Shown here piece after piece: positions 11,340 through 42,323 of a DNA stretch of 64,000 nt; positions within the stretch are counted from its first letter, which is position 1; each line of letters starts with the position of its first letter. Source of the stretch: Nemertoderma westbladi (lineage: Eukaryota > Animalia > Xenacoelomorpha); assembly GCA_032718475.1 (NCBI GenBank), contig JAUCBJ010000785.1, positions 1-64,000 of the forward strand, written 5' to 3'. Position numbers and translations under genes: made by a program. The notes beneath the pieces were generated by a model. That model had not been told where the DNA came from. It was given only the letters and a program-made list of their open reading frames with translations, and did no database searches.

Positions 11340-11672
11340 TCTGTCGCTACCAAAACCGTTTTTACATTGTCTTTGTTTTAACGCCCAATCACTTAACAAT
11401 AAACTCACTGATCTAAGTGCATTTTTTTTAAATAGACGGATTATCACATCGTAGCTATTGTCTGATTCAACGTCTGCGATGCCATGATGAACAGTAAATA
11501 TAAAGTGTTTTGCTCTGATAGGACCACAGCCATCTGTGGTGGTGGTGTTGCTCTGTTGGTGCGCGACACCCCATAATACACCCCAGTCATCCTTCCGACT
11601 GGGTACAGTTTTAGCACTTGTTTCTCTGACGTAATAGCTGTGGGTATTGTTGTTATAGCACCAATCCATATA

Positions 11673-12863
11673 TGTAAAAGCTTTTGTGGGATAACTGATT
11701 CGTTTGCCTTGCTAACCAGTTCCCCCCAGGCGCTGGAATACTCTAAAAAGGGATCTATAACTCGAATAGTGCAAGCTACCGGCTGATTGGCTGATTTACT
11801 GTGCGAAGGGATCTGGGCTATGTTTGATCGTCCAACCAGCTTGGGAAGGTTGCCCCACAGCCCTGCTTTCTGTCCCTGCCAATAGGATTTGAGTTGGTTT
11901 TGATTTCGACCTATCACAGATCTACTGAACTGAATTTTCCTATCTGTATGCTCATTCTCTGTGGTGGGTGGAAGCCTTTGTAAATAAGGTTATTCTTATC
12001 AGTTTTTAGTGTGTTATCATTCTGTCCTGAGCCAGGAGAGAGCGGCTTGGAAATATTTTGTGCTTTTCTGTTTTAGTCTAACACTAGTAGGCTTAATTAT
12101 AAGGACATATATCCGTTATCTGATGTCTGATCACTGATGAACTAAACATAACATACCATACCTAATCAAACAACCTGTGCATACTTTTATATTGTTATAC
12201 TGCTATTTACTGTCAGTTCTTCATAATATGGTTGATGAATTATTATATTTGGAATAACGATAAATAACCCCGAAAACCCAATATTCTTGATATACCGAAG
12301 GTAAGAGAGAAAGGTTACATATAACGATTGTGACTTATGTTAAAGTGGTTTGAAGTGAATCTAATGTTATTTGATAGACCCTACATGAGTCGGTCCGTGT
12401 TCCTTTTATATGTGGCTAAAATCAGTGAAGATCGGCAGATCAGTGTGCAGTATTGTGCAGCATTGTGTATGAGTGAGTCTGATAACGAAGCATTTCCTAA
12501 AGAATGCGCCATATATGTGAATTATAACTAAGCCATATCGTTGTGAGTAGTTTAAGTCATAACTCTGTTTATATAGATAGAGCGCCACGTCCTAAAGGAA
12601 CTGTTAATATTTCCCGAAGGTGAATAATATTGTCAGAGATTATATAATACTGTCAGTCGAATAATACATTAGGCTTACATAGCAATAAGATTAAGCCGTC
12701 GAACCCAATCTCCCGGGTATATCCAGCGGGTGAATGATCGCGCACAGATTGGTTTCGACTAGTGTAGTGAATCAAATACTTGTCATAGGCTAAAAGTGAT
12801 TTATTATCTAAAAGACATCCTAATTTGGCGGGTTAAACTGCCAAAGGTCTGAAAGCGCGAACA
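11673..12863 (+). repeat. 5' LTR (1191 bp)
   Basis: Direct repeat of 29138-30328; TGTAAA...GAACA; only ~4 substitutions seen by eye. Confidence 0.97.
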
Positions 12864-12874
12864 ATAACGGATAT
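12864..12874 (+). promoter_or_regulatory. Putative non-tRNA (self-priming) primer-binding site ATAACGGATAT
   Basis: Abuts the 5' LTR, lacks TGG, and is the exact reverse complement of ATATCCGTTAT at 12109-12119 (and 29574-29584). Confidence 0.6.
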
Positions 12875-12944
12875 TGCTTCTTTATTGCAGTAAGCAATAA
12901 AGTTGAAAGTACCGGTCAACCGGTAAACCTGAACGGTACATCTG

Positions 12945-15000
12945 TAGGTCAGTAGGCCCAACTGCCAGAACCGGTACTGCTGTAGGCCCGTAGGTCCAAC
13001 TGCCAGAACCGGTACTTCTGTAAGTCCGTAGGCCCAACTGTCCTAACCGGTACTTCCCGTATAAGTACATTAGTATTATTCGATTTGATTATTGCATACC
13101 GGTAGGCTGTTTAAGAGATTAGGGACTGTACACCCCTTGTTTCTTTTGGAGCTTACTTATTTCTGTCAGTTTTATTTATTTGTAGGCAAATATTGAACAG
13201 AAGGCGTGTAAGCCTGATCAGATTGTGCAGACAATTTGTAGGTTGAACTGTTGTCTGATTGCTGTTAAGTCTGAACGGATTGCAGTGTGTGTAGATCACC
13301 TCTCCGATAAAGAACGGTTAGGAAGTAGGGGCAGCCAATGCTGTAAGGTAAACCCCCAACTAAAGAATAAGTCGTACTACTGGGTTAGAACGCATACTAC
13401 CTAATCATTTCGGAGTCTGCATGTCCTGTAGTTTATTTAGGCTTGAGAGTAGTCTGCCATCATTGAGTCTGTACTTTGTTTGTGTAAGTCTGTACGGGTA
13501 GCGTATAATATTTATTTAGATAATTTGTAGGCTGGATAGTTGTCTGGCTGTTATTAGGTCTGAACGGATTGCAGTGTGTGTAGGGCCTCTGTCCGATAAA
13601 GAACGGTTAGGAAGTAGGGGCAGCCAATGCTGTAAGGTAAACCCCCAACTAAAGAATAAGTCGTACTACTGGGTTAGAACGCATACTACCTAATCATTTC
13701 GGAGTCTGCATGTCCTGTAGTTTATTTAGGCTTGATAGTAGTCTGTCAGTATTCGGTCTGCATTTTGTTTGAGTGGTTTGTACGCGTAGCGTAATATTTA
13801 TTATTCAGAGTTTATGCGATTATTCGCAACATTCATTCCCCAAGTTTGTTCCTACAATAATTGTGTTTGTTATACATACCGCTATAGTTAAATTAACCCC
13901 GGTACTACACGGGCTGCTTGGCGTAGGTAAAGACTGGTGATTTTGTGCACCGGTCACTCCAGCAGATGCCGTGGTTCTTTTAGCTGTTCAAGTATATTTA
14001 ACTACTGATTATTTGTTGTACAAGTACTCGTACCTAATTTAGGGTTTAGTGTACAGTGCTTTCCGAAAGTAATTAGTGTAGGCATTATATTCGTGTTGTA
14101 AAGTGGTGGATAGGCACGTTCGATTAGCTCTATTAACTTCTAGGTAGGAACACTCCGTGATACATAACGTAGTACCTATAGCGATACGGCTATAGGTCGT
14201 CAGGCGGTGGTATTTTCCTATCTGGATGGACAACGCAGTGTATTTACTACTACTTATTATTTTCAAATACCGTAGTACCCTGTCCGTTGTAATAACCAGA
14301 TTTCTAACCCTTTGTTAGGCTGGTTTGTAGACTTCTTGTAAAATTACCCTGAAATTTCGTATTTTGTGTTTTTGTAAATTTTTGTGTTTATTTAGAGATT
14401 GTAATCTCACCCGAATTGTACGTAATCTGTAGTATTAAGTAACTTAGGTAAATTAGCATTATTTGTTTTAGTGTCCTATAAGTAACACTTCACTGAAAGC
14501 GCACCGCTTTGTGTAGTGATTACTCCCCAGAAATAATAGCATTTATTTCAAACATTGACAAAACCCATTAAAACGGGTATATATATATTATAAATCAACT
14601 CAAACGATTTATAAATAGTAGGCCTGCCATACAACAATTAGGTCTCAATATCAGTTGGACTACTGCTTAAATAACGGTAATAAAGTAAGTTAAAGTAACC
14701 AAGTAACCCTTAAAATTCAGAAATTCAATTATTTAAAATAATTGATATACCGGTATTTACGATAGGCCTATTATATATTTATATACTTGTGCTGAAATCA
14801 TACCGGTATTCTGTAATTAATTCTAGTCTGTAATTATACTTATATATACTACAAACTGTAAGCTGTATACCGGTATTCCCGATAGGCCTATTATATATTT
14901 ATATATATTTGTGCTAAAATTATACCGGTATTCTGTGATAAACCTAGTCTGCAATAATACTTATATAGTTATATATACTATAAGCATACCGGTATTCTAA
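12945..15000. repeat. Internal direct repeats in the long 5' leader of the BEL element (~39-bp x3 at ~12945-13055; 289-bp x2 at ~13230-13800; ~120-bp repeats at ~14745-15000)
   Basis: CTGAACGGATTGCAGTGTGTGTAG at 13271 and 13560; GATAGGCCTATTATATATTT at 14761 and 14881. Confidence 0.85.
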
Positions 15001-15445
15001 TATATTATATATATCACGCTACACTGAGTAGCAGTATCGGTAATTAATTACTAGGCTAGCAGTTAATACTGAGTTACTAAACTTGCTCAGACTGTAATAT
15101 AGCGGTAGACATTCAACTGTACACCTAAACATGTCTGATACTAAGCAGAACCTGTCAGACAGTTTATTAGATGTAACTATCTGCGACTCAGATAGAGGCG
15201 TAGAACCGTCTAGTCGTAAGTTCAGTTCACCTCCCACTGTGAGGAAGGTCATCCCTCCTGTAGTAATAACATAACCTAGGCTGGTCCAACATCGTAGGTC
15301 TATCATAGGCACTCGAGCTCAGGTCAAGCGGGACCAAGAAGCAGCAGAACAGCAACAACCCGCGAGCCAAGAACTTACTTCTCAACGGCCCGACAGCTCC
15401 AGTAGTGAAGATACTGTAGAACTGACACCCGAGCGCGGAGCAAAG

Positions 15446-18400
15446 ATGACGGATGCGGTTTATTCGGATCCCCTTCTCATCCTTCCTGCAGCCGTACTCA
15501 CTAGGTTATTGATTGCGGTGGAAGAACACCAGATCGATTGGGCGAGAAGTCAGCGATCAACTAAAGATAGTTATGCGGGATACACGAGGGAAGAACTGAA
15601 GTCTATTGTTGAGTCGCAATGGAACTTCCCCGGACCCGGACTCCCGTTTGATTTATCAGAAGCTACTTGGGAAGACATACACCGGATGGGAGTAGCCAAG
15701 GAAACCATCGATCCAGCTGTGTGGAAGAGGTCCGCAGCCGGATACGCACAGGGATTCTTCAGCTCTATGGAGAGAGTAGAAAAACAACTGTTTCAACAAC
15801 CTAAAGGACCTCAAGAACAGGGACAACTGCTTTATCAAGTTAGAGAAAGAATTCTGCGAATCAGGCTAATATTATCAGCCTTTGAAGAGGCTTCTAAAAG
15901 AAGACAAGACACGTCGTTGCAAGTTGCCGTAAAGACTTGGTTTCAACGGGTGAGTCGCCAGGTTCAAGGAACAGCTCAGTGGAATGCTCAGCTGGAGGAG
16001 CGCTCAACCCATGGAGAATCAACGGACGCTACTTTTTCCCAAGTGGAAAGTGAAGCGACGGCAGAGAAACCGCATAAGAGGGATGCCATTGACATCTATC
16101 TGTCAGACTATCAGCGTTTTTTGGGAGATGAAGAGTTGAGGAGAAGGCTAGATGGACTTAGCCATAATAGTGAAGGAGCCCAGCGTGTGTTGGATGCAAT
16201 TGATGTGGATAGGTTAGCGGCGAACCAAGCTAAATTCGATGAACAACTCCGCATCGCTAGAGACCAAGAAGAACAAGTAAAGAAAAAACGTATAGAAGAT
16301 AGAAAGACAGCGGCAGTGGCAGCAGCAGTGGCAGAGGCAGAAGCGGAAAGAAAAGCGGCAGCAGCAGTGGCAGCGGCAGAAGCTGAAAGAAAAGCGGCAG
16401 TGGCAGCAGCAGTGGCAGCGGCAGAAGCGGAAAGAAAAGCGGCAGTGGTAGTGGCAGTGGCAGAGGCCGAAGCGGAAAGGAAAGCGGCATCGGCAGTGGC
16501 AGAGGCCGAAGCGGAAAGAAAAGCGGCACTGGCAACAGCAGAGGCAGTGGCAGAAGCAGAACGGAGGGCATCTGAAGAGGCAACCCAACTAGAGTTGGAA
16601 AATCTTCAAGAGAGGCAAGACAACTTCAATAAACAGTTAACAGCTAGTAATATGCAGATGATGAGTCGATCTACTCCCAAAAGACAGGGGTATACATCAT
16701 CTGAGGAAGGCGATACCACCGATACTGAAGGCAAAGGAAATAGATCTCGTCTAAGCAGACGTAAAAGAACATTCCACCGTCAGAAATTGCCTGATTTGCC
16801 TCCAGCTGTTAGAAGGCAACTAAATAACACCAACTTAGGTAGTACAGAGCCCACAGACCAAATAATTAAAATAGAAAGACTCCCTACTATAGTAGATGAG
16901 CCTGAAATAATTAGGCCTGTTCTTGAAATCACCCCTTCGGTGATAGACACACCTGTGCTCCCTGAAACTACCTCTAAATTCCCTCTGCATAGCACCAAGC
17001 TACCTGTGCCCCGTAGAACTGCCCAGGAGACAGTTCAGGTCCTGGACCCCGAGCGAAATATTCCTGATTTGTCGCCCGTTGTCCCTCGTCCGCTCGCTAC
17101 AACGTTGGCGACTCCCGCTTCGGCGGTCGAATGGGTGGACGAGAGACGGCGGGGGATGGATCTCCTGCTCGGGCAGATGCAGGAGACGGTTCAGCAATTC
17201 AAGGGCACAGTAAGGGAAAGTAGGCTTGAGTTGCAAGAAGTGCAGCAAAGTATCGCGCTAGAACGCGATAAATTAGTAAATACACAAAGGGGTATACCAC
17301 CACCCCCTGTAACAATGTGTCAACCTGTTAGGTCTGAAGTATCTCATGCGCAAGGTGTGGAGCCTACACGCATATATACTGCTAGCGAAGTAGAAACTCC
17401 TATAGTGAACCCTATTAAGGGTAATTATAGACCTGTTGATAATGACATTCCCTATAGAACTGATCATAATCCGAGAAATTTATATACCGATAACTCGATA
17501 TTAAATAACACGATGGCCCAAGAAAGTTTTACGCGTCAAATGGCTAGAACCGAAGCCCGGCAAGCGGTAAAGGTGGGAGAGATCGTCAAGTTCAATGGAG
17601 ATGAGATGAAATGGTTACCTTTTAATGAATATTACAAAGATAACATACAGAACTCTGTACTATCTAATGGAGAAAAACTTAGATACCTCATCGAGTGCTT
17701 GGAAGGATCTCCCAAGTTAATGGCGTTAAAGTTTATTGGACATCCAGACGGATTAAGACAAGTTTGGGATACACTAAACATCAGGTATGGTAATAGGAAT
17801 AACATCGCTGGGTATTTGTATGCAAAGTTGGTAGCGCCCCGAAAGTTTATTAGCAGCGGAATTATCGAGTTTTCCGATGAGATTCAGGAGATCTGTAGAA
17901 AATTAGATTGGCTAGGTAAGTCTCAGGAGTATCAGAATGCTATGGTTATTAGAGCAGTGGCTTCTACTTTACCGAAGGGTGGAGTAGGTACACGCTGGGA
18001 TAAGAAAGTGTTATATATGATGGAACAACAACGACGAGACCCTACCATGGCTGATCTCATGTCATTCCTAGATGGAGAAGTGAAATTACAGCTCCTGAAA
18101 CTGTCCAGAGAGAAGACACCGGAAAACAAGGTAAGTGAAAAACCCGTCTCTAGGAGAAAGGTAACACCAGTGTGTTATACAGACGACGGCGAAAGCCAGA
18201 CTTCTCAAGGAGAAGATAGCGGGAAAGACACTGATAGATCTTATTATGTCAATAAAATGCCTAAAGATCAGGTAAGTAAATTCAAGTCTCGAGCAAATGA
18301 CAGGAGAGAACAGGTAAGAAAAACTCCTCCCACGTCTCCCAAGAGAATTCCGGTGAGAAAGCCCGAAGAAAAGGCAAGTGTACACAATGTGACTCAGATT

Positions 18401-21196
18401 AAGGTGAGTAACATCAAACCAAAATGTGCGCTATGTGATGGGACCCATCGCTTGAATATGTGTGATGAATTTCTAAAGAAATCATTAACTGAGAGACGTG
18501 AAGTCATGTGGGACAAGCGGTTGTGTTATAATTGCCTCAGACAAGGACATCAACGGCGAACCTGTTACTCAGACATAAGGTGTGCAAAGTGTGGTGCGAA
18601 GCATCATATCTTGTTGCACGCTGAATTCGATCGAAATAGTCCTAATCAGGTAATTGATTCCGAACTACATGTCCAATTCAGTGATGTGAACGACACTGAT
18701 CAATCTGAGATGGAAGGATTCTATACGGACGAGTTCTCCGACGAAAACGAATCCTGTTACATGATAAATACCGCAGTGTATCGAGCACTCACATATGAAA
18801 AGGATACAGACAACGACTTCACTCTAACTACTTCTGAGCGACAACCATCGTGGAAAGCACCAACTTCCAATGTAGGAATCCGAGAATTTCCTGTAGTCCA
18901 GTTACGGGTCCATGGACCTCAGAAGAGCTATATAGTGAACGCCCTCCTGGACTCCGGCAGCACAGGAACATTCATTGATAAAGAACTAGCCGAAGACATC
19001 TTCGTTGGACAACCCAAGTTCCGAACTAAGCTAAACATATCCGGCATTATGCAAGTTTGGAAATCTACAGTAACAGCTGATTATTATATAGGCGCGTTGT
19101 CCACCCCACAAGACGAACTAGGAGAACATAGCATAAGGTCGGTGAAAATGGTGGCTATAAAGAACTTCGCTACTACTCAAGCAGACCTTTATAATTGGGA
19201 CGAGGATGAGAGCATCCAACATCTTAAGATTCCTCGATTCCAGACTGATTATCCTGGAGTGCAAATACTCATCGGCCAAAACGCGCATGAGGCGCTGGAG
19301 ACATTGGAGAAACGGCCTGCTCAACCGCAGCCACTACAGACCTATGCGGTAAGAACTAGAGTAGGTTGGTACTTTACTGGCCCTTCCCGTAGAACACTCA
19401 GAGAAAGACTACCGCAAGAGCGCGTCTACCAGGTGAGTGAATGGGAAGATGATACTAGTGAGGGAGACGATTTAACTGAGGGAACCCCATACTCCTCAGA
19501 TAACAACGACATTCACCAGCTTTTTGATGAGGAGAATACCATCGATCTCCTTAAGGAAAACGAGGCTTGGCAAAACCAAGTGAACTTATGTCAACTTCTT
19601 TATCCAACTGAACGAGAAGCTTATAACGACGAGTTAAATGACGTCATTGAGCGTTGTAACGCCAAGACTCGAGATGAACATGCCGTAAGATTCTTTACGC
19701 AAGAGGCGGTAGAGCCCAATTCCTACGATAAAGCCTTGTCGGTGGAAGAGGAAAGGGCCAAGCAGATCCAAGAGACAACTACACGTTTCCTCAAAGATCA
19801 AGGTAGGTATGAAGTCGGTCTACCTTTCCGCAAGAGAGAACCGAAGTTCATCAATAACAGACCCTTGGCGGAAAAAAGAATCGCGCAACTCCATCGACGC
19901 CTTACGGCTAATTCTTCAGCTAAAGCAATGTATCAAACACAGCTGGAGAAATTTATTAGAAAGGGATACGCGGAGAGAGTACCGGAAGAAACACCTGTGT
20001 CTGAAAGAACGTATTACTTAACTCACCATTACGTTCCTAAACCACATGAAGTGAGAGTAGTGTTTGATGGCTCCGCTCTTTACATGGGTCAATCCCTTAA
20101 CTCTGAATTGTTACCCGGACCCAACTTACTTCAATCTTTGTTGGGAATTCTTTTAAGATTGAGACAATATTCGATTGCTTTCGCCTCCGATATAGAAGGC
20201 ATGTTCTTACAAGTCAAGGTGCTAGATAGGGATCGAGATAGTCTACGATTTCTGTGGTGGCCCGAAGGAGACCTCAACCAGAAACCGGTGGAGTACTGGA
20301 TGACCATCCAGGCCTTTGGGATAATCTCAAGCCCTTCCAACGCCTGTTCGGTAGTGCGTACTACTGCAGAGGACAACCGAGAGGCATTCTCTAAGGAAGT
20401 GATCGACAACATCAAGAGAGACATATACATGGACGACAATCTGAAGTCCCTCCCATCAGTTGAGGAAGCCATTGAGGTCGCTAAAGGAACGGTAGAGTGC
20501 TTAAAAAGAGGTGGGTTTCGATTAACAAAATTCACCAGCAACTCCCGTGAGTTTCTGGAGTCGATCCCTGCGGAAGATCGAGGGGCGAAAGATCTAGATT
20601 TGATCAAAGATGATCTGCCAGAAACCATGACACTCGGCTTGAAATGGGACACAGAGCGAGATATTCTGTTTTTCCAGCTAAAACAGCGTGATAATCCAGT
20701 TCGAACCAAACGGATTTGCTTAAGTATACTGAGCACTTTTTTCGATCCATTGGGATTTATTAGCCCAGTTATATTGATTGCTCGTAGTTTGGTACAACAA
20801 ATGTGGCTTGAAAACCACTCATGGGACGATCCACTTAAGGGAGAATTATTGAAGAAGTGGATGAAATGGGAAGATTCTCTGCCGGCTATCGAGGATTTTA
20901 TAATTTCCCGTTCATATTTTGGTCATGTTCTCCCTACGTATTCCTATCAACTCCATGTGTTTGGAGACGCCAGCGATATGGGAATAGGTATAGTAGCCTA
21001 TCTAAGAGTGGAAACTCCGGATGGAATCAAAGTCGCCTTGGTTACTTCTAAGGCATTAATCAACAACAAGTTGAAAGTTCCTCGAGCGGAGTTAAAAGCG
21101 GCTCTATACGCTACAGCCATCGGCCGGAATGTAACAGAACAGATTGACTATCCATTAGAGAAAACTGTCTATTGGACCGACGTTTACTCGTGTTAG
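15446..21196 (+). CDS. BEL/Pao Gag-protease-RT-RNase H polyprotein (probable original start ATG 15131, interrupted by TAA 15272)
   Basis: FNGDEMKWLPF gag motif; CALCDGTHRLNMC, CYNCLRQGHQRRTC, CAKCGAKHHILLH; ALLDSGS protease; RVVFDGS, SDIEGMFLQV, YMDD RT; LHVFGDAS, PRAEL, YWTD RNase H. Confidence 0.95.
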   Translation: MTDAVYSDPLLILPAAVLTRLLIAVEEHQIDWARSQRSTKDSYAGYTREELKSIVESQWNFPGPGLPFDLSEATWEDIHRMGVAKETIDPAVWKRSAAGYAQGFFSSMERVEKQLFQQPKGPQEQGQLLYQVRERILRIRLILSAFEEASKRRQDTSLQVAVKTWFQRVSRQVQGTAQWNAQLEERSTHGESTDATFSQVESEATAEKPHKRDAIDIYLSDYQRFLGDEELRRRLDGLSHNSEGAQRVLDAIDVDRLAANQAKFDEQLRIARDQEEQVKKKRIEDRKTAAVAAAVAEAEAERKAAAAVAAAEAERKAAVAAAVAAAEAERKAAVVVAVAEAEAERKAASAVAEAEAERKAALATAEAVAEAERRASEEATQLELENLQERQDNFNKQLTASNMQMMSRSTPKRQGYTSSEEGDTTDTEGKGNRSRLSRRKRTFHRQKLPDLPPAVRRQLNNTNLGSTEPTDQIIKIERLPTIVDEPEIIRPVLEITPSVIDTPVLPETTSKFPLHSTKLPVPRRTAQETVQVLDPERNIPDLSPVVPRPLATTLATPASAVEWVDERRRGMDLLLGQMQETVQQFKGTVRESRLELQEVQQSIALERDKLVNTQRGIPPPPVTMCQPVRSEVSHAQGVEPTRIYTASEVETPIVNPIKGNYRPVDNDIPYRTDHNPRNLYTDNSILNNTMAQESFTRQMARTEARQAVKVGEIVKFNGDEMKWLPFNEYYKDNIQNSVLSNGEKLRYLIECLEGSPKLMALKFIGHPDGLRQVWDTLNIRYGNRNNIAGYLYAKLVAPRKFISSGIIEFSDEIQEICRKLDWLGKSQEYQNAMVIRAVASTLPKGGVGTRWDKKVLYMMEQQRRDPTMADLMSFLDGEVKLQLLKLSREKTPENKVSEKPVSRRKVTPVCYTDDGESQTSQGEDSGKDTDRSYYVNKMPKDQVSKFKSRANDRREQVRKTPPTSPKRIPVRKPEEKASVHNVTQIKVSNIKPKCALCDGTHRLNMCDEFLKKSLTERREVMWDKRLCYNCLRQGHQRRTCYSDIRCAKCGAKHHILLHAEFDRNSPNQVIDSELHVQFSDVNDTDQSEMEGFYTDEFSDENESCYMINTAVYRALTYEKDTDNDFTLTTSERQPSWKAPTSNVGIREFPVVQLRVHGPQKSYIVNALLDSGSTGTFIDKELAEDIFVGQPKFRTKLNISGIMQVWKSTVTADYYIGALSTPQDELGEHSIRSVKMVAIKNFATTQADLYNWDEDESIQHLKIPRFQTDYPGVQILIGQNAHEALETLEKRPAQPQPLQTYAVRTRVGWYFTGPSRRTLRERLPQERVYQVSEWEDDTSEGDDLTEGTPYSSDNNDIHQLFDEENTIDLLKENEAWQNQVNLCQLLYPTEREAYNDELNDVIERCNAKTRDEHAVRFFTQEAVEPNSYDKALSVEEERAKQIQETTTRFLKDQGRYEVGLPFRKREPKFINNRPLAEKRIAQLHRRLTANSSAKAMYQTQLEKFIRKGYAERVPEETPVSERTYYLTHHYVPKPHEVRVVFDGSALYMGQSLNSELLPGPNLLQSLLGILLRLRQYSIAFASDIEGMFLQVKVLDRDRDSLRFLWWPEGDLNQKPVEYWMTIQAFGIISSPSNACSVVRTTAEDNREAFSKEVIDNIKRDIYMDDNLKSLPSVEEAIEVAKGTVECLKRGGFRLTKFTSNSREFLESIPAEDRGAKDLDLIKDDLPETMTLGLKWDTERDILFFQLKQRDNPVRTKRICLSILSTFFDPLGFISPVILIARSLVQQMWLENHSWDDPLKGELLKKWMKWEDSLPAIEDFIISRSYFGHVLPTYSYQLHVFGDASDMGIGIVAYLRVETPDGIKVALVTSKALINNKLKVPRAELKAALYATAIGRNVTEQIDYPLEKTVYWTDVYSC

Positions 21197-23157
21197 AGTA
21201 TATAACCAATGAAGTCTGTCAGTTCAGCGTCTTCGTTACCAACAGGGTAGCCATCATACTTAGTCGCACGACGATGGACCAATGGAGACATTGCCCCGGA
21301 ACGATTAATCCAGCAGACATCGCTTCCCGAGGAGCGACTCCAAAGGAATTGGTAAATACTCCCGAATGGTTAGGTGGACCCGACTTTCTCTACAAAGAAG
21401 AAGAAGAATGGCCTCCCCATCTCACAACAGCAGAGATCAGACAGGCCAAGGGAGCGGAGAAAGTTAAACCCAAAACTCGAGTGAGTAAATCGAAGTTGTT
21501 TAAACCTGCGGTTGATCTATCTGTATTATTTACTTCCGGAGAGTATGCTTTGGATCAGAAACCCACCGCCACGACTAAAGAAGTCTTGGAAATCCGTGAC
21601 AAGGATTGGAAATCTGGAATACCAGATATCGCGCAAGGACTCTCACCCCTCTTGCAGAGAGCGATATGTCACTACAGCTCCTGGAATCGGCTCTGCAAAG
21701 CCGTCACCTATTTAAAACGATGTTTTCATCATCGTTATTCCGGGACAAAGACCAATAGTGATGATGCTCCATCAACATCTGCACGAGTCCATGTTGTTAA
21801 AGACCTTCCCCAATACAAGATATCTGACAGGTTTCTAAAGGAGAAGATCAGTTACCAGGAGCATGATGAAACCAACAAACAGATGCTGAGACTCCTACAA
21901 TGCTATGAGGATCCTGATAAGTATTTCCTGTTGTTAAGAAATCCGAAGATGCGCTTAAGGGATCGCTTCTCTAGTACCATGATAGATGGGTTAATACGTG
22001 TTGGAGGCAGGCTCACCAACGCCCCCTTATCCTTTGACACTAAGTTTCCCATACTCATTAGAAATCTTGACATACAAATCAAGATGATTGTAGATGTTCA
22101 TAGCAAACTGTATCATGCTGGAAGAGAACGAGTTCTGAGCGAAATTCGAACTCGCTACTATTTATTTGGCCCTATTGAAGTATATCGTGCCCGGACTATA
22201 GTCAAGAGATGGTGTGTCATCTTCGTTTGTATGACTTGTAGAGCTATCCATCTCGATATGGTAAACGATCTATCCACCAACAGCTTCGTGTTGAGTTTAC
22301 GACGACAGATTGCTCGCTTCGGAACCAGTAACACGATGAGATCAGATAAGGGAACGAACTTCATTGGCGCCAACAACGAAATTCAAGCTTACGTAAAGGA
22401 CTGGAACAAAAGACAGGTGGACGATCAGCTAAAGATAACAGCTTCTAGCTGGACCTTCAACGCCGCCGACGCCCCTTGGTGGGGAGGAAGTTGGGAGAGA
22501 TTGATTAGGAGCGTGAAGACTGCGTTCCACTTTATTGTGCCTTGTCGCGCTTATCTCACCGACGAACTATTGCGGACGTTAATGGAGGAAATCGCCGCCT
22601 ATCTCAACGAAAGACCGCTTATGCCAGTCTCTTCAAGTCCTGATTCTCTGGAAGCGCTAACACCCGCGCACTTTCTACTGAAGAAACCCGTAGCCATGCT
22701 CCCACGATCGGAGATCACAGACGGAGACGAGTACTGCCGTCGAACCTGGCAACTTATGCAGTTGCTATCCCGTCGTTTCGCTGACCATTTCGAGAAACAT
22801 TACCTGCCCACTCTACAACTTCGAACTAAGTGGTTTGCGCAGCAAGAAAACGTCAGCGCTGGAGACATGGTGCTTATTGTGGACCCCGATCTCCCACGTA
22901 AGCGATGGCAAACAGGACGTATCATCGAGACTCATATCTCGAGCGATGGTTTGGTGCGATCAGTAGAGCTCGTCGTCATGCGGCGTAACTTTAAGAAACC
23001 AGGGATAGTCTTTGAGACTCAACAGCTCAATCGCCCAGTGGGTCGTTTATGTTTACTGGAAAGAGACAGAGAGCTCTCCGGAAACTATGGAAGGCAAGAA
23101 ACTCTTCCCACGACCACTTCCCTAATCCAACCGACATCTAGGGACTCCCCAACTTAA
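21172..23157 (+). CDS. BEL/Pao pol C-terminal part (end of RNase H + integrase), frameshifted from the upstream ORF and internally deleted
   Basis: WRHCPGTINPADIASRG, LIRVGGRL, HSKLYHAG, IFVCMTCRAIHLD, SDKGTNF, WWGGSWERLIRSVK, LTPAHFL, W..GRI....DGLVR. Confidence 0.93.
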   Translation: MDRRLLVLEYITNEVCQFSVFVTNRVAIILSRTTMDQWRHCPGTINPADIASRGATPKELVNTPEWLGGPDFLYKEEEEWPPHLTTAEIRQAKGAEKVKPKTRVSKSKLFKPAVDLSVLFTSGEYALDQKPTATTKEVLEIRDKDWKSGIPDIAQGLSPLLQRAICHYSSWNRLCKAVTYLKRCFHHRYSGTKTNSDDAPSTSARVHVVKDLPQYKISDRFLKEKISYQEHDETNKQMLRLLQCYEDPDKYFLLLRNPKMRLRDRFSSTMIDGLIRVGGRLTNAPLSFDTKFPILIRNLDIQIKMIVDVHSKLYHAGRERVLSEIRTRYYLFGPIEVYRARTIVKRWCVIFVCMTCRAIHLDMVNDLSTNSFVLSLRRQIARFGTSNTMRSDKGTNFIGANNEIQAYVKDWNKRQVDDQLKITASSWTFNAADAPWWGGSWERLIRSVKTAFHFIVPCRAYLTDELLRTLMEEIAAYLNERPLMPVSSSPDSLEALTPAHFLLKKPVAMLPRSEITDGDEYCRRTWQLMQLLSRRFADHFEKHYLPTLQLRTKWFAQQENVSAGDMVLIVDPDLPRKRWQTGRIIETHISSDGLVRSVELVVMRRNFKKPGIVFETQQLNRPVGRLCLLERDRELSGNYGRQETLPTTTSLIQPTSRDSPT

Positions 23158-23699
23158 TATCGTTCGGAGTGGGCGTGTGACTCTATTATTTTATATTATT
23201 TTATTATTTTTATATTTATGTATGTATTACTATGTAATTTTATTATAATCGTTTTATTTAATTTAGTAGAATATTATTTAGCGATTATTTAGTAGAATAG
23301 TGCAATATGTTCGTGTTCATTGCGTACGTAATTACTTATATTATATTTAGTGCGACGGCGAGAAACAATTCTTTTTCTCTTTCCTTACTGTCCGTATTAT
23401 ATTATAAATACGTAACTACAGTAAGATGACATGTCCGTACTTATTAAAGTACAATAAAGCCACTACTATATTTAAGTATTATTGGTAGGCAGAGTATTAG
23501 GAATGCAAAGTTCAGATCCTCGTGTCTCGGCTAAACCAAGCTCTGGGTAGACCTTGGAAACGACTTGCCTCTTCACACTGACATTGCTTCGTGCGATATT
23601 GCTCTCATACCGTATATTAAATAATACATATAGTAGCGTGATGTCCCTTTAACAGTAGCGTATAACGCAAAATAAATCTGTTAAACCCTTTGACCATCT

Positions 23700-23980
23700 G
23701 TAATTCTAGTCGATTAAGATATCGCGGCACCCACCGATATACTTGAAAGACAAATTCTAGAATCAGTGGTTAACGTCCCCAGACAAGTTCTGGAATAAAT
23801 CGGTGCCAATCTCAAATATTCATTATTTAATATTTGCAAATCTAATAAATCAAAATCTGTAAAATTCAGATCCTTCAACAATTCTAGTCAATTAAGATAT
23901 CGTAGCATTTACCGATATTCTTAAAAAGACAATTGTCATAGAATTAAGGATCTTGTGTCCCCAGACATGTTCTAGAATCA
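23700..23980. repeat. Imperfect ~100-bp direct repeat (period ~179) in the pol-ORF3 spacer
   Basis: AATTCTAGTC(G/A)ATTAAGATATCG...ACCGATAT...GTCCCCAGACA at ~23702 and ~23880. Confidence 0.75.
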
Positions 23981-24805
23981 ATAATATGTCCATTTAATTA
24001 TCAAATAATAACATTTCAGGGAATAATTTAAATTCATGCCTTTTAATGAATTTAATAAATTGCCATTTTTACGCAATTTATAACATTCCCAAAATTCCAT
24101 TAATTAATAGATCAAGGGAGCGGAGATTTATCTTATTATGCATATGAGTGTGCGAAAGTCTCCCAAACATAGTCAATAGCCGATAAAATTCATAAAGTCA
24201 TGTATAAAATAGAACATTGACTATTAAAGAATACTATTAAATAACATCCCAGATCTGTATGCGTTGGAATTACCCTAATTCTACCGCTAGCTTTGCATAA
24301 TGTCACCATAGCAACAACCACGCTAGAATTAGAATTGAGTTAAAAGAACAATAGAAAGCTTGTCCCATTGAATAGCATAGGGAATAAATAGCGCACTGCT
24401 AGTATCCAAGGATACATAATAATACAGTGACATTCTGGAAGGCATTGACTAACGGACAAATGGCCAGAATGTGCGTAGTTGTGACCAGTTGTGTGGTATT
24501 TGTGAGTTTATAGGTGAACGTTACTGCTAAAGTGTGTTTACAGTAGCTAGTCGCAATCGTGAAAGTAACCTAACTCTCCAAGGAAAACCTGAAGTACATC
24601 TAAGCCTTTGGGACGGACAGTTGAGTGACTTGTGCCGGTTATCATTGTCGTTGTACGGCTACGTCGTTGGCTAAAGTACAGCGACAGCGGTACATCGGCG
24701 CTGAGAATCTCACACTGTCCGGGGGCAAGGGAGAAGTAGGCAGCGACGCCCGCTCGCCTAATAAATATAAACTCATTATAATATTGGTGAACTCGTATAG
24801 CAGAT

Positions 24806-27800
24806 ATGACTGAATTAATAGAAGATGATCTTGGTATCAGGGAGAGATATATTCTACCTTTACAAGCGTTTGTCGATAGCTTGATACGCGGCGACGCTGA
24901 TCCAACTACTACGGAGGACGATGGTCGTTATATCGAACCGCCAATGTCCCAGGAGCAACTTACGCGTGAATTGGACTATAGAAAATTCACTGCTCGCTAT
25001 ACGCATCGTAATGGTACGTATATGGACTTCTTGACTACTGGTCATCCTATTGATTTACACGACACCGACGATGTCGATACCGAAAGGGAAATGGTTTTAT
25101 TTAAATATCATACCCAGCGGAGTCGAAACGACAAATCGAGAATAGAACACGAGAACTCTATTCGAAATAAACTCGAAAGAGAAGACGTTGAAGAACCTGA
25201 TAAACGTAGCGGCTTCAACGAATATCTAGAATTCCTAAGAGAGACCTATCTCAATGTTGCTAGTCAACAAAACCTCGAAACTCGATATCCTCAAGGTATA
25301 CATCCAGATCCTATGATGGAACTCAAACGGCTCTATTTTACGATGATGTATCTTACCGCCGATCGACCACTCCCTGTCGTTCCAGATAGCTTCGAACAGA
25401 TGGAGGAATATTGTAAAACTGGAGAGCGATCACCCGCGTTTCCCCTTCAAGACGTACGTCTCTGGTATTACTGTGACGAATGCCCTAGACCTAACCAGCA
25501 AATCGAAAGACATAAACATCCGCGGAGACGTTGTGCTAAACACAGTTTTACGCGATATACTTATGGGAGTTTCGAGCGAAACCTTTTCGACGTATCACCT
25601 ACGGTCGCGTGCCTTAAACGATCATTGAACAAACCCATGATCAGAGTTCCGGAATACTCGGTCAGACCTCCTCATTCCCAAGTGATACCTCAAACTCTCG
25701 ATCCTAATAGTATTACGGATCCTCCCGAGCTATACTCACTGTTCAAAGATCTAGTGTTACCTGAACAGTTGATTGGTGGCACTCCGGTAGTGGGTTCGTT
25801 AGATATTCGCCAACCTTACCTCGCTGGACTAGGACGCGGTCATCTAATATCACCGTTTAACCCCTACAACCGTCCTGGCCTCCCTCCGATCCAACCTGTA
25901 ACAGAAGTCGAAGAGAGCGTGATACGAAATGCATTGAACGCTATTCGGCAGAAAATCGGAAAGGGAACTTACGATTGCTTGGAGAAACGTAAATTGCAAC
26001 AACAAGTTCAAGCGGTGAAAGAACTAGCTTTACCACAGTTCGATAGAGAAATACAGAATCTAGAGGAGGACATCGAACGTGGACGAACCTACTCCTTGCA
26101 GGAATTCCTGGACGAGCGCTTGCAACAACAAGCTGAGGAAAATCAGCTCGAGGAGAGACATATAGAGCTGACTGAGAGGGAAGAAGCTGCTTTAGCCCAA
26201 CCAGAAACTCAAATTCTCGTGACGGATCTCTATTCCAAAACGATCCTCCACCCCTCAATGGTTCCTCATTTTAAAGACAAGCTCTTTGCTACGGTACAGC
26301 CTCAACCGGTTAATACTGATCTCAGATCTCACGAGCTCATTGCTGACGCTCCTATGATACAACGTCCACCCATCGCGGCTGCTCGTGTCGATGGTGTACT
26401 TGTTGAGCCTCCGGACAATAGAGCGGATCTAGTCCGTCGCATGGTACACGATGTTAACATACGCGCTAGACCTTTGCCGGACTCATTTTATGGAATTAAG
26501 GATCATCCTTATTACGTCAATTTAAAGCAATATTACATGGTAAAACCAGAAGATCCTATGCATAGTCTGAAGTTTCTACCATTGATCAATCCTCTCGACC
26601 TCGTCGAACTCGAACAACTACAAAAACATCTAGATCAGCTAGTTAAACTAAACTCATTTCGAAAACCGTATAATATTTCCAGAATAGAGAAAGAAATATT
26701 ACCTCCGTACAATCTTGATGGATTCATTAAAACTCGATTGGTACACTGGAACCTTGACGTGTTATTCGAGGAAGAAAGAATAAAACGATATGGAGATGTG
26801 GAAACCTATACTACACAATGCTTAAAGTATAGAGATTTACCCAATGCTAGCGAATGCGCTACTTTGTGGCATCCAGTGGGAATGACTCTCGAAAACGCCA
26901 CTAAAGAATGGAACGAGACTCTTAACGTTATCGAGATGTATGGCGTTGTTACTTATGACAACGAAGGTAGCGTTCCGGTGGGAGAACTAGGAACTACGCG
27001 AATGATACATATACGAGGACTCGCTGGTTCTACCCACGTATTCACTCGAGCGTGTTCCGACGTGATCGATTATTCTTTTGAAACCCTTACGGAGACACAA
27101 AAGAAACTTCGACATGGACAATTCGAGCTCGCGCAGCGTTACGTCACCGACACCGAGCGCAAACCGGCCATGGGTATCGACGGATCAATGTTACCCCAAC
27201 CCGTGCTCGAAATGTTGTTTAACGAAAGAATCCTAAAAATCGGCTCAGCTGTTTATGGAGATCTCCAAAACGACTTCCGGAATATGGAAAACATTCCATA
27301 CCCTTTCGTTGATACTCAGCTGATTGCTCCTTGGGCCGAAGGCCGAGGTTTCTTTCGCACTATGTATGCCAATACACCCAGCGACATTACTAAGGTACAA
27401 CGGACATCCATCGGACATCTTGCCTTTCAAGAATATGGATGGAATTTCAAAGTTGGAAATCCTACCAATTACCAGCAAGTATATGGAGATCATTACTCTC
27501 GTTTATATTTTGATGGACCATTAACTGCGCCTGGTGCCGTATATAGCTTTATGAGTGTTCCACTTCGCCCTTCCTTAGCTATATACACGATCTTTGAAAA
27601 CGCAGCACTTGCCGGTTGGCTAGCCGATGTGTGCAGTCGTACCATACGCGCTCACCCATTAATACTTGGAACTAAACTCGCCAAGTTAGACGAACACAAT
27701 AAGTTTATACGTTTCGAATGTTTCCGGCGCTTTCTGACTCCGTTCCGTAACGTCGATAGTCAGTTCAAGGACCGCGCGCTGACCAAACTCAGTCTGAGAG

Positions 27801-29059
27801 ACTCAGCTGCGGAGAAACTGAGTAGCGCTGGATTTGCAGTTTTTCAAGACGTTTGTATACAGAACTTACATTCATCTGTTATACAAAGACCCCGAATACC
27901 TACAGGTTATTCTGTCGTGGAAATACAGACAGTGGGTGCACTTACTGAGACAGACGCACCCACTTCGTCTATACAGCTGGAGGATGAACCAGTATGCTTG
28001 GAATCAGAAGCGATTCAGCCTACAGCTTCCCGGAGCAGTGACAATGATTATGTAATAGAGTGGTATCAAGGTCCACAGCGTCTCACAGCGTACGATTATC
28101 GACACGCCAACTACGTTTCTCGAAAACGTTGTCGATTATGCGCATCGAGAGACCACTTCACTCCTCTAGACTCGAGCGTACCTTGTTCCTATTTCCTCGA
28201 ACAACCGATGATGGAAATATATTGTGCTTATTGCCGGCTTAATAACTCTCATATATTTGCCGTCTGCCCACAATTTATGACTCAATGTCACTACTGTCAA
28301 CTTAAAGGACATGAAAGTTACAATTGTCCCTTTAATCGCGATTTAGAGAGCGTAGACGAGATGATCACCCTGCGATACATCCGAGCTTGGGAAGCGAATG
28401 CGGATTTACATTGCGAATCCCGACATCGCTACTACCCTGGACGAGCTTACGAGGGAGTTTACGCGTTCCATCCCTATCTATTCGCGTCGATTGAACAGAA
28501 AACACGCGTACCAAGTTACGAGTTAGTGAAGCGTGTTGGTGAGTGTATTTCCACCAAGTTTGTCAGAAAATACCTTAGAAACGTTAACCCTAATGATATA
28601 ACCACCTATCACCTGATCAATTTTATCCGTCAGGACCCTGAGTATGGCGACATCTTTGTGAACTCGCATCCTGAACTACAGGAAGTATCTCGGCGACCAT
28701 ATGAATATCGAACCCGAGAACGCGAGCTGGAGAGAACCATTAAACCGAGAAAGTTCCTCACCACTCACGGTCCACCCACCGCTAGTGTCCAGACGACCCG
28801 TCAAGGACCCGTAGGAGCTGCTGTCCTGAGACGCGCTCTAAAGGCCGTTAGACCTCGCTCCACTGAGGTTGATATTAATCAACCAGGTACTTCGACCGGC
28901 GGGTATACCGATCGTAACCCTGCACCTTCTGATGCAATTATATTGCACCCTTCGCCTAGGAGCTACAGCCCTCCTCGTAAAGTGGCTCGCCCCAAAGAGA
29001 AAAAGACTCTGGCTAGCTTTAAAAAACTGCGTAAACGCCGTCCGCGCAAGAAAGACTAA
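24806..29059 (+). CDS. Retrotransposon accessory protein (1417 aa): N-terminal Cys/His motif, coiled coil, DnaQ/DEDDy-like 3'-5' exonuclease domain, CCHC zinc knuckles, basic C-terminus
   Basis: Intact ORF between pol and the 3' LTR; VVTYDNEG (ExoI), LP..VLEMLFNERILKIGSAVYGDL (ExoII), FVDTQ, PL..SLAIYTIFE (ExoIII-like) at ~26940-27605; CRLC..H, CAYC..H..C, CHYCQLKGHESYNC at ~28129-28327; KKLRKRRPRKKD tail; no signal peptide or TM segment. Confidence 0.85.
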   Translation: MTELIEDDLGIRERYILPLQAFVDSLIRGDADPTTTEDDGRYIEPPMSQEQLTRELDYRKFTARYTHRNGTYMDFLTTGHPIDLHDTDDVDTEREMVLFKYHTQRSRNDKSRIEHENSIRNKLEREDVEEPDKRSGFNEYLEFLRETYLNVASQQNLETRYPQGIHPDPMMELKRLYFTMMYLTADRPLPVVPDSFEQMEEYCKTGERSPAFPLQDVRLWYYCDECPRPNQQIERHKHPRRRCAKHSFTRYTYGSFERNLFDVSPTVACLKRSLNKPMIRVPEYSVRPPHSQVIPQTLDPNSITDPPELYSLFKDLVLPEQLIGGTPVVGSLDIRQPYLAGLGRGHLISPFNPYNRPGLPPIQPVTEVEESVIRNALNAIRQKIGKGTYDCLEKRKLQQQVQAVKELALPQFDREIQNLEEDIERGRTYSLQEFLDERLQQQAEENQLEERHIELTEREEAALAQPETQILVTDLYSKTILHPSMVPHFKDKLFATVQPQPVNTDLRSHELIADAPMIQRPPIAAARVDGVLVEPPDNRADLVRRMVHDVNIRARPLPDSFYGIKDHPYYVNLKQYYMVKPEDPMHSLKFLPLINPLDLVELEQLQKHLDQLVKLNSFRKPYNISRIEKEILPPYNLDGFIKTRLVHWNLDVLFEEERIKRYGDVETYTTQCLKYRDLPNASECATLWHPVGMTLENATKEWNETLNVIEMYGVVTYDNEGSVPVGELGTTRMIHIRGLAGSTHVFTRACSDVIDYSFETLTETQKKLRHGQFELAQRYVTDTERKPAMGIDGSMLPQPVLEMLFNERILKIGSAVYGDLQNDFRNMENIPYPFVDTQLIAPWAEGRGFFRTMYANTPSDITKVQRTSIGHLAFQEYGWNFKVGNPTNYQQVYGDHYSRLYFDGPLTAPGAVYSFMSVPLRPSLAIYTIFENAALAGWLADVCSRTIRAHPLILGTKLAKLDEHNKFIRFECFRRFLTPFRNVDSQFKDRALTKLSLRDSAAEKLSSAGFAVFQDVCIQNLHSSVIQRPRIPTGYSVVEIQTVGALTETDAPTSSIQLEDEPVCLESEAIQPTASRSSDNDYVIEWYQGPQRLTAYDYRHANYVSRKRCRLCASRDHFTPLDSSVPCSYFLEQPMMEIYCAYCRLNNSHIFAVCPQFMTQCHYCQLKGHESYNCPFNRDLESVDEMITLRYIRAWEANADLHCESRHRYYPGRAYEGVYAFHPYLFASIEQKTRVPSYELVKRVGECISTKFVRKYLRNVNPNDITTYHLINFIRQDPEYGDIFVNSHPELQEVSRRPYEYRTRERELERTIKPRKFLTTHGPPTASVQTTRQGPVGAAVLRRALKAVRPRSTEVDINQPGTSTGGYTDRNPAPSDAIILHPSPRSYSPPRKVARPKEKKTLASFKKLRKRRPRKKD

Positions 29060-29129
29060 CTGTTTAGAGTATTTATGTATATTAGAAATTGTGATTTTGT
29101 ATATTTTATAGACTTAAATCCCATTTTCT

Positions 29130-29137
29130 GGGAGCGG
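29130..29137 (+). promoter_or_regulatory. Short polypurine tract (GGGAGCGG)
   Basis: Purine-rich run directly before the TGT of the 3' LTR. Confidence 0.6.
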
Positions 29138-30328
29138 TGTAAAAGCTTTTGTGGGATAACTGATTCGTTTGCCTTGCTAACCAGTTCCCCCCAGGCGCTG
29201 GAATACTCTAAAAAGGGATCTATAACTCGAATAGTGCAAGCTACCGGCTGATTGGCTGATTTACTGTGCGAAGGGATCTGGGCTATGTTTGATCGTCCAA
29301 CCAGCTTGGGAAGGTTGCCCCACAGCCCTGCTTTCTGTACCTGCCAATAGGATTTGAGTTGGTTTTGATTTCGACCTATCACAGATCTACTGAACTGAAT
29401 TTTCCTATCTGTATGCTCATTCTCTGTGGTGGGTGGAAGCCTTTGTAAATAAGGTTATTCTTATCAGTTTTTAGTGTGTTATCATTCTGTCCTGAGCCAG
29501 GAGAGAGCGGCTTGGAAATATTTTGTGCTTTTCTGTTTTAGTCTAACACTAGTAGGCTTAATTATAAGTACATATATCCGTTATCTGATGTCTGATCACT
29601 GATGAACTAAACATAACATACCATACCTAATCAAACAATCTGTGCATACTTTTATATTGTTATACTGCTATTTACTGTCAGTTCTTCATAATATGGTTGA
29701 TGAATTATTATATTTGGAATAACGATAAATAACCCCGAAAACCCAATATTCTTGATATACCGAAGGTAAGAGAGAAAGGTTACATATAACGATTGTGACT
29801 TATGTTAAAGTGGTTTGAAGTGAATCTAATGTTATTTGATAGACCCTACATGAGTCGGTCCGTGTTCCTTTTATATGTGGCTAAAATCAGTGAAGATCGG
29901 CAGATCAGTGTGCAGTATTGTGCAGCATTGTGTATGAGTGAGTCTGATAACGAAGCATTTCCTAAAGAATGCGCCATATATGTGAATTATAACTAAGCCA
30001 TATCGTTGTGAGTAGTTTAAGTCATAACTCTGTTTATATAGATAGAGCGCCACGTCCTAAAGGAACTGTTAATATTTCCCGAAGGTGAATAATATTGTCA
30101 GAGATTATATAATACTGTCAGTCGAATAATACATTAGGCTTACATAGCAATAAGATTAAGCCGTCGAACCCAATCTCCCGGGTATATCCAGCGGGTGAAT
30201 GATCGCGCACAGATTGGTTTCGACTAGTGTAGTGAATCAAATACTTGTCATAGGCTAAAAGTGATTTATTATCTAAAAGACATCCTAATTTGGCGGGTTA
30301 AACTGCCAAAGGTCTGAAAGCGCTAACA
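29138..30328 (+). repeat. 3' LTR (1191 bp)
   Basis: Direct repeat of 11673-12863, followed by the ATATA TSD. Confidence 0.97.
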
Positions 30329-31204
30329 ATATAGTTTGTGTTTATCGTGCACCACACACTAGTAATTACACAAATATTTGTAGTGATTCACATTTATTCA
30401 TTTGTTTATCTGTACAAGCCGACATTAGTCACCCATGTGTTATTTTAGGCGATTTTAATTTTCCAGATTACAACTGGCTCACAAGACTTCCCTAATACCG
30501 ATTTTTATATTAATTTTAGTAATTTCGTATTAGAAACTGGTTTATCACAATTATAGCTTCGACCAATCAGAAAACATTCCGAGAACCATTCAGTGCCAGT
30601 GACCACGATGGTGTAATTTTTAACCCTATTAAACCTGGGGGTGGGAGGGTCAATATGACCCCCAACCCCCGTGGTTTTTTCGGCATAACTCCGAAACAAA
30701 CGCAGTGGGGAATCTGAAATTTTATGACTTTTCCTAAAAATCTATTGTTTTCCTAATAATTAAAACGGTTTTCAAAAATATTGAGAAGTTTTTGAGTTAT
30801 AGCACCATTTTGTAGCCCTTCTTCAGGCACTTTTTTTGAGGCGTTTTTTAAAAATTACATTTTATGAAATATGATTAGTTCTGTATATTGTTGTATTCTT
30901 AATGAACTTAAGCTGCAATACAGCAATACTTCGATATACAGCAATACTCCGATACTGCAATGCAATAGGTGGAGTCGTTCAGTACTACTTGCATACCGGG
31001 CAAGCAATCTGCGAGTTTATAATTGTGATTGATTCATTTTATCAATATTCATCACCATGAATTTATTTAATTGTAGTGTTTAAAGACGCGCAATTATAAA
31101 GACGCCGCTTTCAATTGATATATGCTACGTGTGAAATGATTGAGATTAAATGTGTATTTAAATGCGTCTAAAATCACCCTCCAGAGAAACCAATATAAGA
31201 AATT

Positions 31205-34936: not shown

Positions 34937-35152
34937 TAATGGGATAGATCTAAATAGGCACAAAGTGAACATAATATACTTAACTAACTCAAATACCGCC
35001 TACCTACTTTGTTTGTCTTTCTTTATCTTTGCCGGGAAATTTTAAAAATAATCAATTCGTTGCTGCCCTCAATCTCCCAATCACTGTTTATAAATTTGCA
35101 CAAACTGAGAGAAATATAAATCATCGTAATAAACTATTAGTAAAAAATTCTA

Positions 35153-42322: not shown

Positions 42323-42323
42323 T

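Follow-up and report, generated by a model that had tools for sequence, protein, structure and literature searches.

A Predicted DEDDy-Like Exonuclease Domain with Zinc Knuckles in the Third Open Reading Frame of an Atypical BEL/Pao-Type Retrotransposon from Nemertoderma westbladi

The rotifer elements Juno and Vesta are Ty3/gypsy-type retrotransposons with long terminal repeats (LTRs). Third genes that encode enzymes are on record for LTR elements, and to our knowledge no function has ever been assigned to any of them. As set out in the available part of the report by Rodriguez et al. (2017, PMC5408684), a third open reading frame (ORF3) for an RNase D-like DEDDy protein replaces the envelope gene (env) in Juno and Vesta, a DEDDy ORF3 also occurs in Athena/Terminon elements, and 3'-end processing or silencing was proposed as its role; two reviews restate the rotifer DEDDy ORF3s in their accessible passages (PMC6431247, PMC6338049). 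A comparable build is known from Trypanosoma brucei RND (PDB 7c42), in which a DEDD exonuclease and a linker are followed by CCHC fingers that, according to the available text of PMC7797062, hold RNA five to nine bases from its 3' end while two metals cut. Here, an ORF3 is described in a 64-kb stretch of Nemertoderma westbladi DNA (the window; contig JAUCBJ010000785.1, positions 1 to 64,000), where positions 11673-30328 form one BEL/Pao-type LTR retrotransposon of 18,656 bp. Residues ~713-945 of the encoded protein very probably adopt a strongly diverged DEDDy-like 3'-5' exonuclease fold.

The locus is reminiscent of the rotifer ORF3s, as far as these are described in the accessible text, in that an exonuclease ORF without a transmembrane segment lies behind pol, carries a changed acidic motif, and has a predicted function only. 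The motif is given as DEED for the rotifer ORF3s and reads D-E-D-E here. By description, the present ORF3 is set apart by its BEL/Pao host, its 1,417 amino acids (aa), its three knuckles, and its long N-terminal part, and the rotifer report, in the part available, detects no clear deviation from neutrality in its ORF3s, in contrast to the predominantly silent variants found here. In contrast to ORF3, with three knuckles and D-E-D-E, trypanosome RND is a cellular mitochondrial enzyme with four fingers and a canonical D-E-D-D site; the observed likeness is one of layout rather than sequence, and probably reflects a convergent fusion. By analogy, ORF3 would thus resemble the rotifer DEDDy ORF3 in setting and trypanosome RND in build, the likeness to the rotifer pool being one of description. 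Belpaoviridae with env-like third genes, such as Tas, roo, and the mosquito gB-type elements (PMC8742986, PMC13524379), share the Gag, Pol, and LTR markers and a third ORF behind pol, but theirs encodes a membrane protein. A DEDDy ORF3 in place of env is therefore already known; new are the BEL/Pao host, the excess of silent variants, the size, and the likely self-priming. An initial annotation of this DNA had named no precedent for the architecture in BEL/Pao elements. That view holds for these elements, for which no report of an exonuclease ORF was found in the literature, where Repbase reports, subscription journals, and supplements might hold one; the word "exonuclease" is absent from the main text of the BEL/Pao papers PMC3118150 and PMC13524379. 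In kind, the architecture has precedents beyond that group, in the published rotifer ORF3s and the exonuclease-CCHC layout of RND.

ORF3 occupies the position where env would sit: pol ends at 23157, and the 3' LTR begins at 29138. The following parts can be distinguished, all on the forward strand; P0001 is its one distant homologue.

24806..29059, ORF3, 1,417 aa, without a membrane segment
24806..26785, N-terminal 660 aa, with a Cys/His cluster at residues 223-246 and a Glu/Gln-rich, likely coiled stretch at 390-460 (read by eye)
26942..27640, residues 713-945, predicted 3'-5' exonuclease domain of DEDDy-like type
28130..28327, three Cys/His zinc knuckles, residues 1109-1174 (motif positions)
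28373..28480, aromatic/basic motif behind the knuckles, common to ORF3 and P0001 (alignment, by eye)
28982..29056, basic tail, a predicted nuclear localization signal (net charge +8 over the last 17 residues)

The initial annotation had reported an uninterrupted frame of this length, the absence of envelope features, five exonuclease motifs in a given order, three knuckles of which one is canonical, and a basic tail resembling a nuclear localization signal, and each of these observations was reproduced. An open frame of such length has a log10 P of about -42 from the base composition of the window. The protein has no transmembrane or signal segment: the highest 19-residue Kyte-Doolittle mean is 1.19, with 0.73 within the first 40 windows, and an envelope protein was rejected on these values. 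The five motifs lie in the expected order at residues 714-721, 795-820, 834-838, 868-882, and 919-931, with D718, E720, D819, Y927, and E931 as putative catalytic residues. The knuckles start at residues 1109, 1140, and 1161, the third alone being canonical (CX2CX4HX4C); the region matches zf-CCHC_3 below the cut-off (expect value (E) 0.005), and a two-sequence profile of ORF3 and P0001 matches nucleocapsid knuckles (E 0.003). No relative of the N-terminal 660 aa was found in Pfam, PHROG, PDB, or viral contigs.

The fold assignment is based on the agreement of several individually weak tests. With residues 660-1010 as the query, 25/30 ESM Atlas matches fell into PF01612 clusters (score 0.92, 166-170 features in common), the error rates of this resource applying to whole proteins and the query being a partial one. 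ORF3 has two NCBIfam matches in total, an RNase D model in either case, which with E 0.004 and 0.03 stay well short of the cut-off. Against a profile built from 82 bacterial EXD2-like proteins, ORF3 reached 8.6 bits, more than any of 1,000 shuffles and any of the 45 other ORFs of the window; P0001 scored 4.4 bits, which was equalled by 1/1,000 shuffles. An ordered motif pattern, written after the sequences had been seen, fits 16/19 RNase D rows, ORF3 (715-931), and P0001, and none of 20,000 shuffles of each. Finally, an hhalign profile-profile comparison gave a probability of 95% (E 3e-8) and is partly circular, as its profile included three fungal-type rows found via the ORF3 query.

Several results weigh against this assignment. 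No Pfam match was obtained for ORF3 at E<=1 or for the domain alone at E<=10; at the curated cut-off of PF01612, ORF3 is no hit and P0001 reaches 11.9 bits versus 23.6. PDB sequence searches with ORF3 returned no DEDD protein among the matches, and ORF3 received no score from a profile that combined 10 RNase D proteins of Bacteroidota. Across 36 MAFFT settings, ExoII (D819) was aligned in 36/36, ExoI in 16, Y927 in 12, E931 in 4, and all five residues in 2/36. ExoIII of ORF3 reads Y-x3-E (Y927, E931) in place of Y-x3-D. Single-sequence AlphaFold prediction yielded no usable fold (predicted local distance difference test (pLDDT) 32). A guided prediction used one of the two MAFFT settings that align all five residues, picked for that property and including RNase D rows; in this alignment, the ExoI pair D718/E720 (D62/E64 in P0001) is invariant. 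The resulting model has a pLDDT of 55 overall, 81-89 near ExoI and ExoII, and about 72 near ExoIII, with three strands right after D718/E720; model residues 80-131 form an insertion of low confidence. Because the RNase D rows steered the model, its structural matches are only partly independent, and with its mediocre pLDDT it indicates compatibility with a DEDDy fold rather than independent proof.

With that qualification, the guided model matches Nibbler, RNase D, NrnC-type proteins, Rrp6, EXD1, WRN, and trypanosome RND at practically tied Z values of 10.6-12.1 in the VIA search (10.6 for RND), and Foldseek placed Egalitarian first (E 1e-3). The DEDDy domains of Egalitarian, EXD1, Nibbler (Mut-7), WRN, RNase D, and Rrp6 share the motif order and, as modeled, the fold (Z 9.8-12.1); ORF3 is about 8-15% identical to them and carries extra stretches, behind strand 3 (approximately 35-40 aa) and ahead of ExoIII (approximately 25-35 aa). 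Among WRN, EXD, Mut-7, and RNase D, no subfamily stands out. ExoI D-x-E and the ExoII Asp are present, and ExoIII Y-x3-D and a score at the PF01612 cut-off are not; because ExoIII reads Y-x3-E, the domain appears from its motifs to be DEDDy-like and is not called a canonical DEDDy member. An alternative register, with ExoI near residue 755 and ExoIII at 905-917, was rejected, as it conflicts with the pairwise P0001 alignment and drops acidic residues. The description of the exonuclease as intact is thus correct for the open frame and not for a canonical catalytic site, given Y-x3-E in both ORF3 and P0001. Likewise, its placement in the DnaQ/DEDDy group is held up by the ESM Atlas, NCBIfam, the EXD2-like profile, and the motif pattern, and departs from it at the Asp of the last motif, which is Glu at 931. 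For the RNase H-like fold, support that does not depend on the guided model comes from the ESM Atlas, NCBIfam, and EXD2-like profile results.

P0001, a 648-aa ENA protein on a 9.4-kb contig, was the single match in a HMMER scan of 1.84 billion representatives (E 3e-8). Its exonuclease is 30% identical to that of ORF3 over 150 aa, with an overall range of 25-30%, and the two proteins have in common the exonuclease, a Y-x3-E-N ExoIII, the knuckles, and the motif behind them; P0001 retains D62, E64, D130, Y229, and E233. Its best ESM Atlas match, a PF01612 plus zf-CCHC cluster of Euglenozoa (score 0.86), is a lead only. No cellular WRN, EXD, Mut-7, or RNase D protein was found at E<=0.001 among the same representatives, and a recent capture of a host gene is therefore disfavored. 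Word-index searches recovered no homologue among 3,262 candidates with residues 640-1200 and none among 5,038 candidates with the domain profile, and P0001 alone with the ORF3-P0001 profile. That profile identified no related locus in metagenome or viral contigs, nor did the N-terminal half of ORF3 in viral contigs; plasmid and phage searches with P0001 returned rows at E 6-10 only. Four loci detected with the domain profile (L001-L004) were rejected as family members, being WRN-like genes of fungal type that match the ExoII region only. These soil metagenome genes encode a WRN-like exonuclease (PF01612 E 2e-6 in L003 and 1e-5 in L002) followed by conserved unassigned domains, and are possibly transposon-borne.

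The pattern of variation indicates that ORF3 is cargo of the element under purifying selection and not a host gene captured once. ORF3 is present whole or in part in 6/7 listed public-run rows, from 4 studies, and tens of thousands of variant contigs from public runs map onto the element; 4 public runs were compared with it. In run X3, contigs of the exonuclease region have depths of 4,932 and 6,179 versus 46 and 54 for flank contigs, and we infer a family of roughly a hundred copies. Within the domain, 35/40 variants are silent and 35/40 fall at third positions, against an expected silent fraction of about 0.29, within a range of 0.23-0.30. The corresponding rough omega is 0.04-0.06, and the five motif residues are unaltered by any of these variants; all counts in the domain rest on the 40 best supported of 171 variant rows. 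Element-wide, 5/8 listed variants are silent in ORF3 and 15/24 in gag-pol, numbers too few for comparison. Joints in runs X1 and X3 reveal members of the family without the exonuclease and knuckles; one of them links residue 453 to 1303 in frame, and another is out of frame. The in-frame variant shows that a copy may lack the exonuclease-knuckle module in cis. At 25588-28857, the depth summed over contigs falls below that of gag-pol; as this sum is not a measure of copy number, only the joints were used. Other internal deletions, at 15172-16052 (gag start) and 21464-23028 (pol), represent non-autonomous derivatives.

The element that carries ORF3 is young and multi-copy. Its remaining features are as follows, on the forward strand except for the target-site duplications, to which no strand is assigned.

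11668..11672, left target-site duplication, 5 bp, identical to the 5 bases at 30329-30333
11673..12863, 5' LTR, 1,191 bp, TG...CA, with 4 mismatches against the 3' copy
12109..12119, candidate self-primer, 11 nt within the LTR, exact complement of 12864-12874, at the predicted transcript start
12864..12874, primer-site position directly behind the 5' LTR, 11-nt complement of LTR 12109-12119 (sequence match)
12875..15445, leader, 2.6 kb, with internal repeats (38 bp x3, about 289 bp x2, about 120 bp x2)
15446..21196, gag-pol ORF, 1,916 aa: DUF1759, Gag knuckles, protease LDSG, reverse transcriptase (RT) YMDD, Peptidase_A17/RNase H; ends prematurely at a frame break
21148..23157, remainder of pol, in a different frame: RNase H end, integrase (shortened core), DUF5641
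23158..24805, non-coding spacer, 1.65 kb, between pol and ORF3
29130..29137, polypurine tract, 7/8 purines, adjoining the 3' LTR
29138..30328, 3' LTR (comparison with the 5' LTR)
30329..30333, right target-site duplication

The LTRs, of 1,191 bp each with TG...CA ends, differ by 0.34%, and a 5-bp duplication lies on either side of the element. Pao-type domains were matched in the first ORF (DUF1759, E 2e-11; Peptidase_A17, E 4e-36) and in the next frame (DUF5641, E 3e-20), the motifs LDSG, YMDD, and FGDAS are present, and the order protease-RT-RNase H-integrase is that of BEL/Pao elements. The ICTV profile of Belpaoviridae (PMC8742986) gives a size range of 4.2-10 kb and an 18-nt tRNA-Arg/Gly site as the usual primer site; the present element, at 18.7 kb, exceeds the former and lacks the latter. 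In the available text of the main BEL/Pao survey, full-length elements were capped at 15 kb (PMC3118150). Because the usual primer-site trait fails while the basis in Pol markers holds, the element is classified from its sequence as BEL/Pao-type and atypical, a class that rests on Pol markers and not on primer-site or size traits. The pol of this copy is broken, with a frame break near 21,180-21,200 and a short integrase core near 22,160; ORF3 remains open despite this. The spacer contains candidate signals for separate expression, namely an AT-rich TATA-like stretch that precedes the ATG of ORF3 by about 40 nt and, immediately upstream of this ATG, a weak acceptor-like signal, CAG. The single strong splice-donor match in the LTR and leader is at 12300/12301, with an acceptor-like AG about 78 nt downstream (by eye); it is possibly part of an LTR intron or a donor for an ORF3 message. 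The Gag N-terminal extension is very long, about 700 aa ahead of DUF1759 (15446-17600), and contains an Ala/Glu-rich tandem repeat at 16282-16590. The observed/expected CpG ratio of the ORF3 region (24673-27672) is 1.1-1.5, and that of ORF3 itself 1.26; gag-pol has a ratio of 0.84, and the DNA outside the element one of 0.78. The high ratio may reflect a different origin or little methylation.

No tRNA-type primer site follows the 5' LTR, the first TGG being at 13147, 283 nt behind it. Instead, reverse transcription likely starts without a tRNA, by self-priming in the style of Tf1, as suggested by the 11-nt complementarity, which would place the 3' end of the primer at the LTR boundary. A comparable 11-nt match occurs at 5/16,263 interior positions and in 11/20,000 LTR shuffles. 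In RNA folds from 12109 to 12900 or 12950, the duplex has a pairing probability of 0.57-1.0; it forms for transcript starts 12089 to 12113 and is lost in three longer folds (3/5). No canonical TATA box is found at -30 of the candidate start, 12109. In Tf1, Tf2, and Tj1 (PMC7175516, PMC4600332), a site right behind the 5' LTR is likewise complementary over 11 nt to an LTR-internal segment, but these are Ty3/gypsy chromoviruses, whereas the present element is of BEL/Pao type and its transcript start is predicted from sequence. In the accessible parts of PMC6317226 and PMC3601003, no self-priming elements are named other than Tf1/sushi and certain copia lineages of plants. Runs X1 and X3 contain family variants that lack about 52-55 LTR bases right after the candidate self-primer (12120-12173) and keep the 11-mer.

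In the account that we tentatively prefer, ORF3 would be a separately expressed, knuckle-guided trimmer of RNA 3' ends that acts in trans against host RNA silencing. The protein may be expressed from the spacer by its promoter-like and acceptor-like signals and imported into the nucleus by its basic tail. With its zinc knuckles, it would hold single-stranded RNA and pass the 3' end of that RNA to the active site, which is predicted still to bind metal and cut with Glu in place of Asp. Action in trans would be compatible with family variants that lack the exonuclease and knuckles. The substrate could be small silencing RNAs or their precursors, trimming of which would blunt RNA-based silencing by the host. 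A cell factor acting in trans fits better than a packaged replication enzyme, because ORF3 is not fused to Gag-Pol, the spacer carries these signals, the tail is basic, and the module can be absent in cis. Besides the results that weigh against the fold and the Glu in ExoIII, it counts against this account that conserved acidic residues do not prove catalysis: Egalitarian keeps putative catalytic residues that are dispensable, as stated in the available text of PMC13186709. A bolder version, which we consider unlikely, is that of a giant, tRNA-independent BEL/Pao lineage whose active D-E-D-E exoribonuclease with nucleocapsid-like knuckles destroys or mis-trims PIWI-interacting RNAs (piRNAs) or small interfering RNAs in trans, as an undescribed family of mobile exonucleases. 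If true, an animal retrotransposon would carry an enzyme of its own that suppresses silencing by small RNAs. With ORF3 present with and without the exonuclease module in a young, multi-copy family, the system is a good test case for an anti-small-RNA nuclease. BEL/Pao biology is also widened by a single element that combines a size of 18.7 kb, cargo other than an envelope gene, and reverse transcription that likely starts without a tRNA.

The case of Egalitarian leads to the main rival, itself an unlikely one, in which ORF3 is a non-catalytic RNA adaptor whose fold and knuckles bind element RNA or a host ribonucleoprotein, for germ-line routing or as a decoy for piRNA factors, in the way that this fold serves Egalitarian and EXD1. 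The Asp-to-Glu change in both ORF3 and P0001 would suit such a protein, as would the dispensable Egalitarian residues and the long unassigned N-terminal half, which could serve as a scaffold. In Foldseek, the first five rows are Egalitarian-BicD structures (E 1e-3 to 4e-3), and EXD1 matches the guided model at Z 11.7 and is the second Atlas match of P0001 (0.77). Against the adaptor, Egalitarian reaches only rank 22 in the VIA search (Z 9.8, root-mean-square deviation (rmsd) 6.8), no LOTUS-like domain was detected, and 4/5 canonical residues are retained, the fifth being Glu and not a neutral residue, across two proteins that are 25-30% identical. A place in the replication cycle, with ORF3 trimming the 3' end of the self-primer or editing cDNA ends at a tRNA-free start, would draw on the missing tRNA site, the exact complement ending at the LTR boundary, its pairing in the shorter folds, and the resemblance of the ORF3 knuckles to nucleocapsid fingers; it is nevertheless rather improbable, as Tf1 produces its 11-base primer with RNase H alone (PMC7175516), the duplex is lost in the longer RNAs, and packaging of the unfused ORF3 is not evident.

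Small-RNA trimming could also serve the host. In that case, ORF3 would be a self-limiting or host-serving trimmer like Mut-7/Nibbler that silences its own or competing elements, an option proposed for rotifer ORF3s in the available part of PMC5408684 and favored by the VIA search, where Nibbler shares the top rank (Z 12.1, rmsd 3.9, 191 aligned). Top Z values are tied across subfamilies, however, the same source notes that such elements should be out-competed, and the present family is young and abundant, all of which makes this option highly improbable. Least credible, by a shade, is that the motifs arose by chance or mark a decayed host gene, captured once and carried passively in this copy. 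No curated family cut-off is reached and a single homologue was found, which speaks for such a reading, but the frame is intronless and open, the silent variants are in strong excess, no cellular relative is as close as a recent capture should leave, and the distant P0001 has the same two modules; the layout of P0001, the silent-variant excess, and the motif pattern already largely refute it.

Around the element, a fibrinogen C-terminal domain exon (9729-10424, E 1e-34), which is indicative of animal DNA, lies 1.2 kb upstream of the insertion. LINE-type pieces are found at 765-3888, 5363-6681, 32545-34949, and 47515-48068 (RVT_1 E 7e-23, endonuclease-like; copies 91-96% identical), and 37095-45572 is a tandem duplication of about 4 kb, 95-98% identical, with ORFs of 819 and 471 aa that match no Pfam family. 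The window further contains a tRNA-Gln gene (35152-35226), a fold-back element with 151-bp arms built from 16-bp units (50807-51470), and a 2.4-kb minisatellite of 23-24-bp units (54747-57193).

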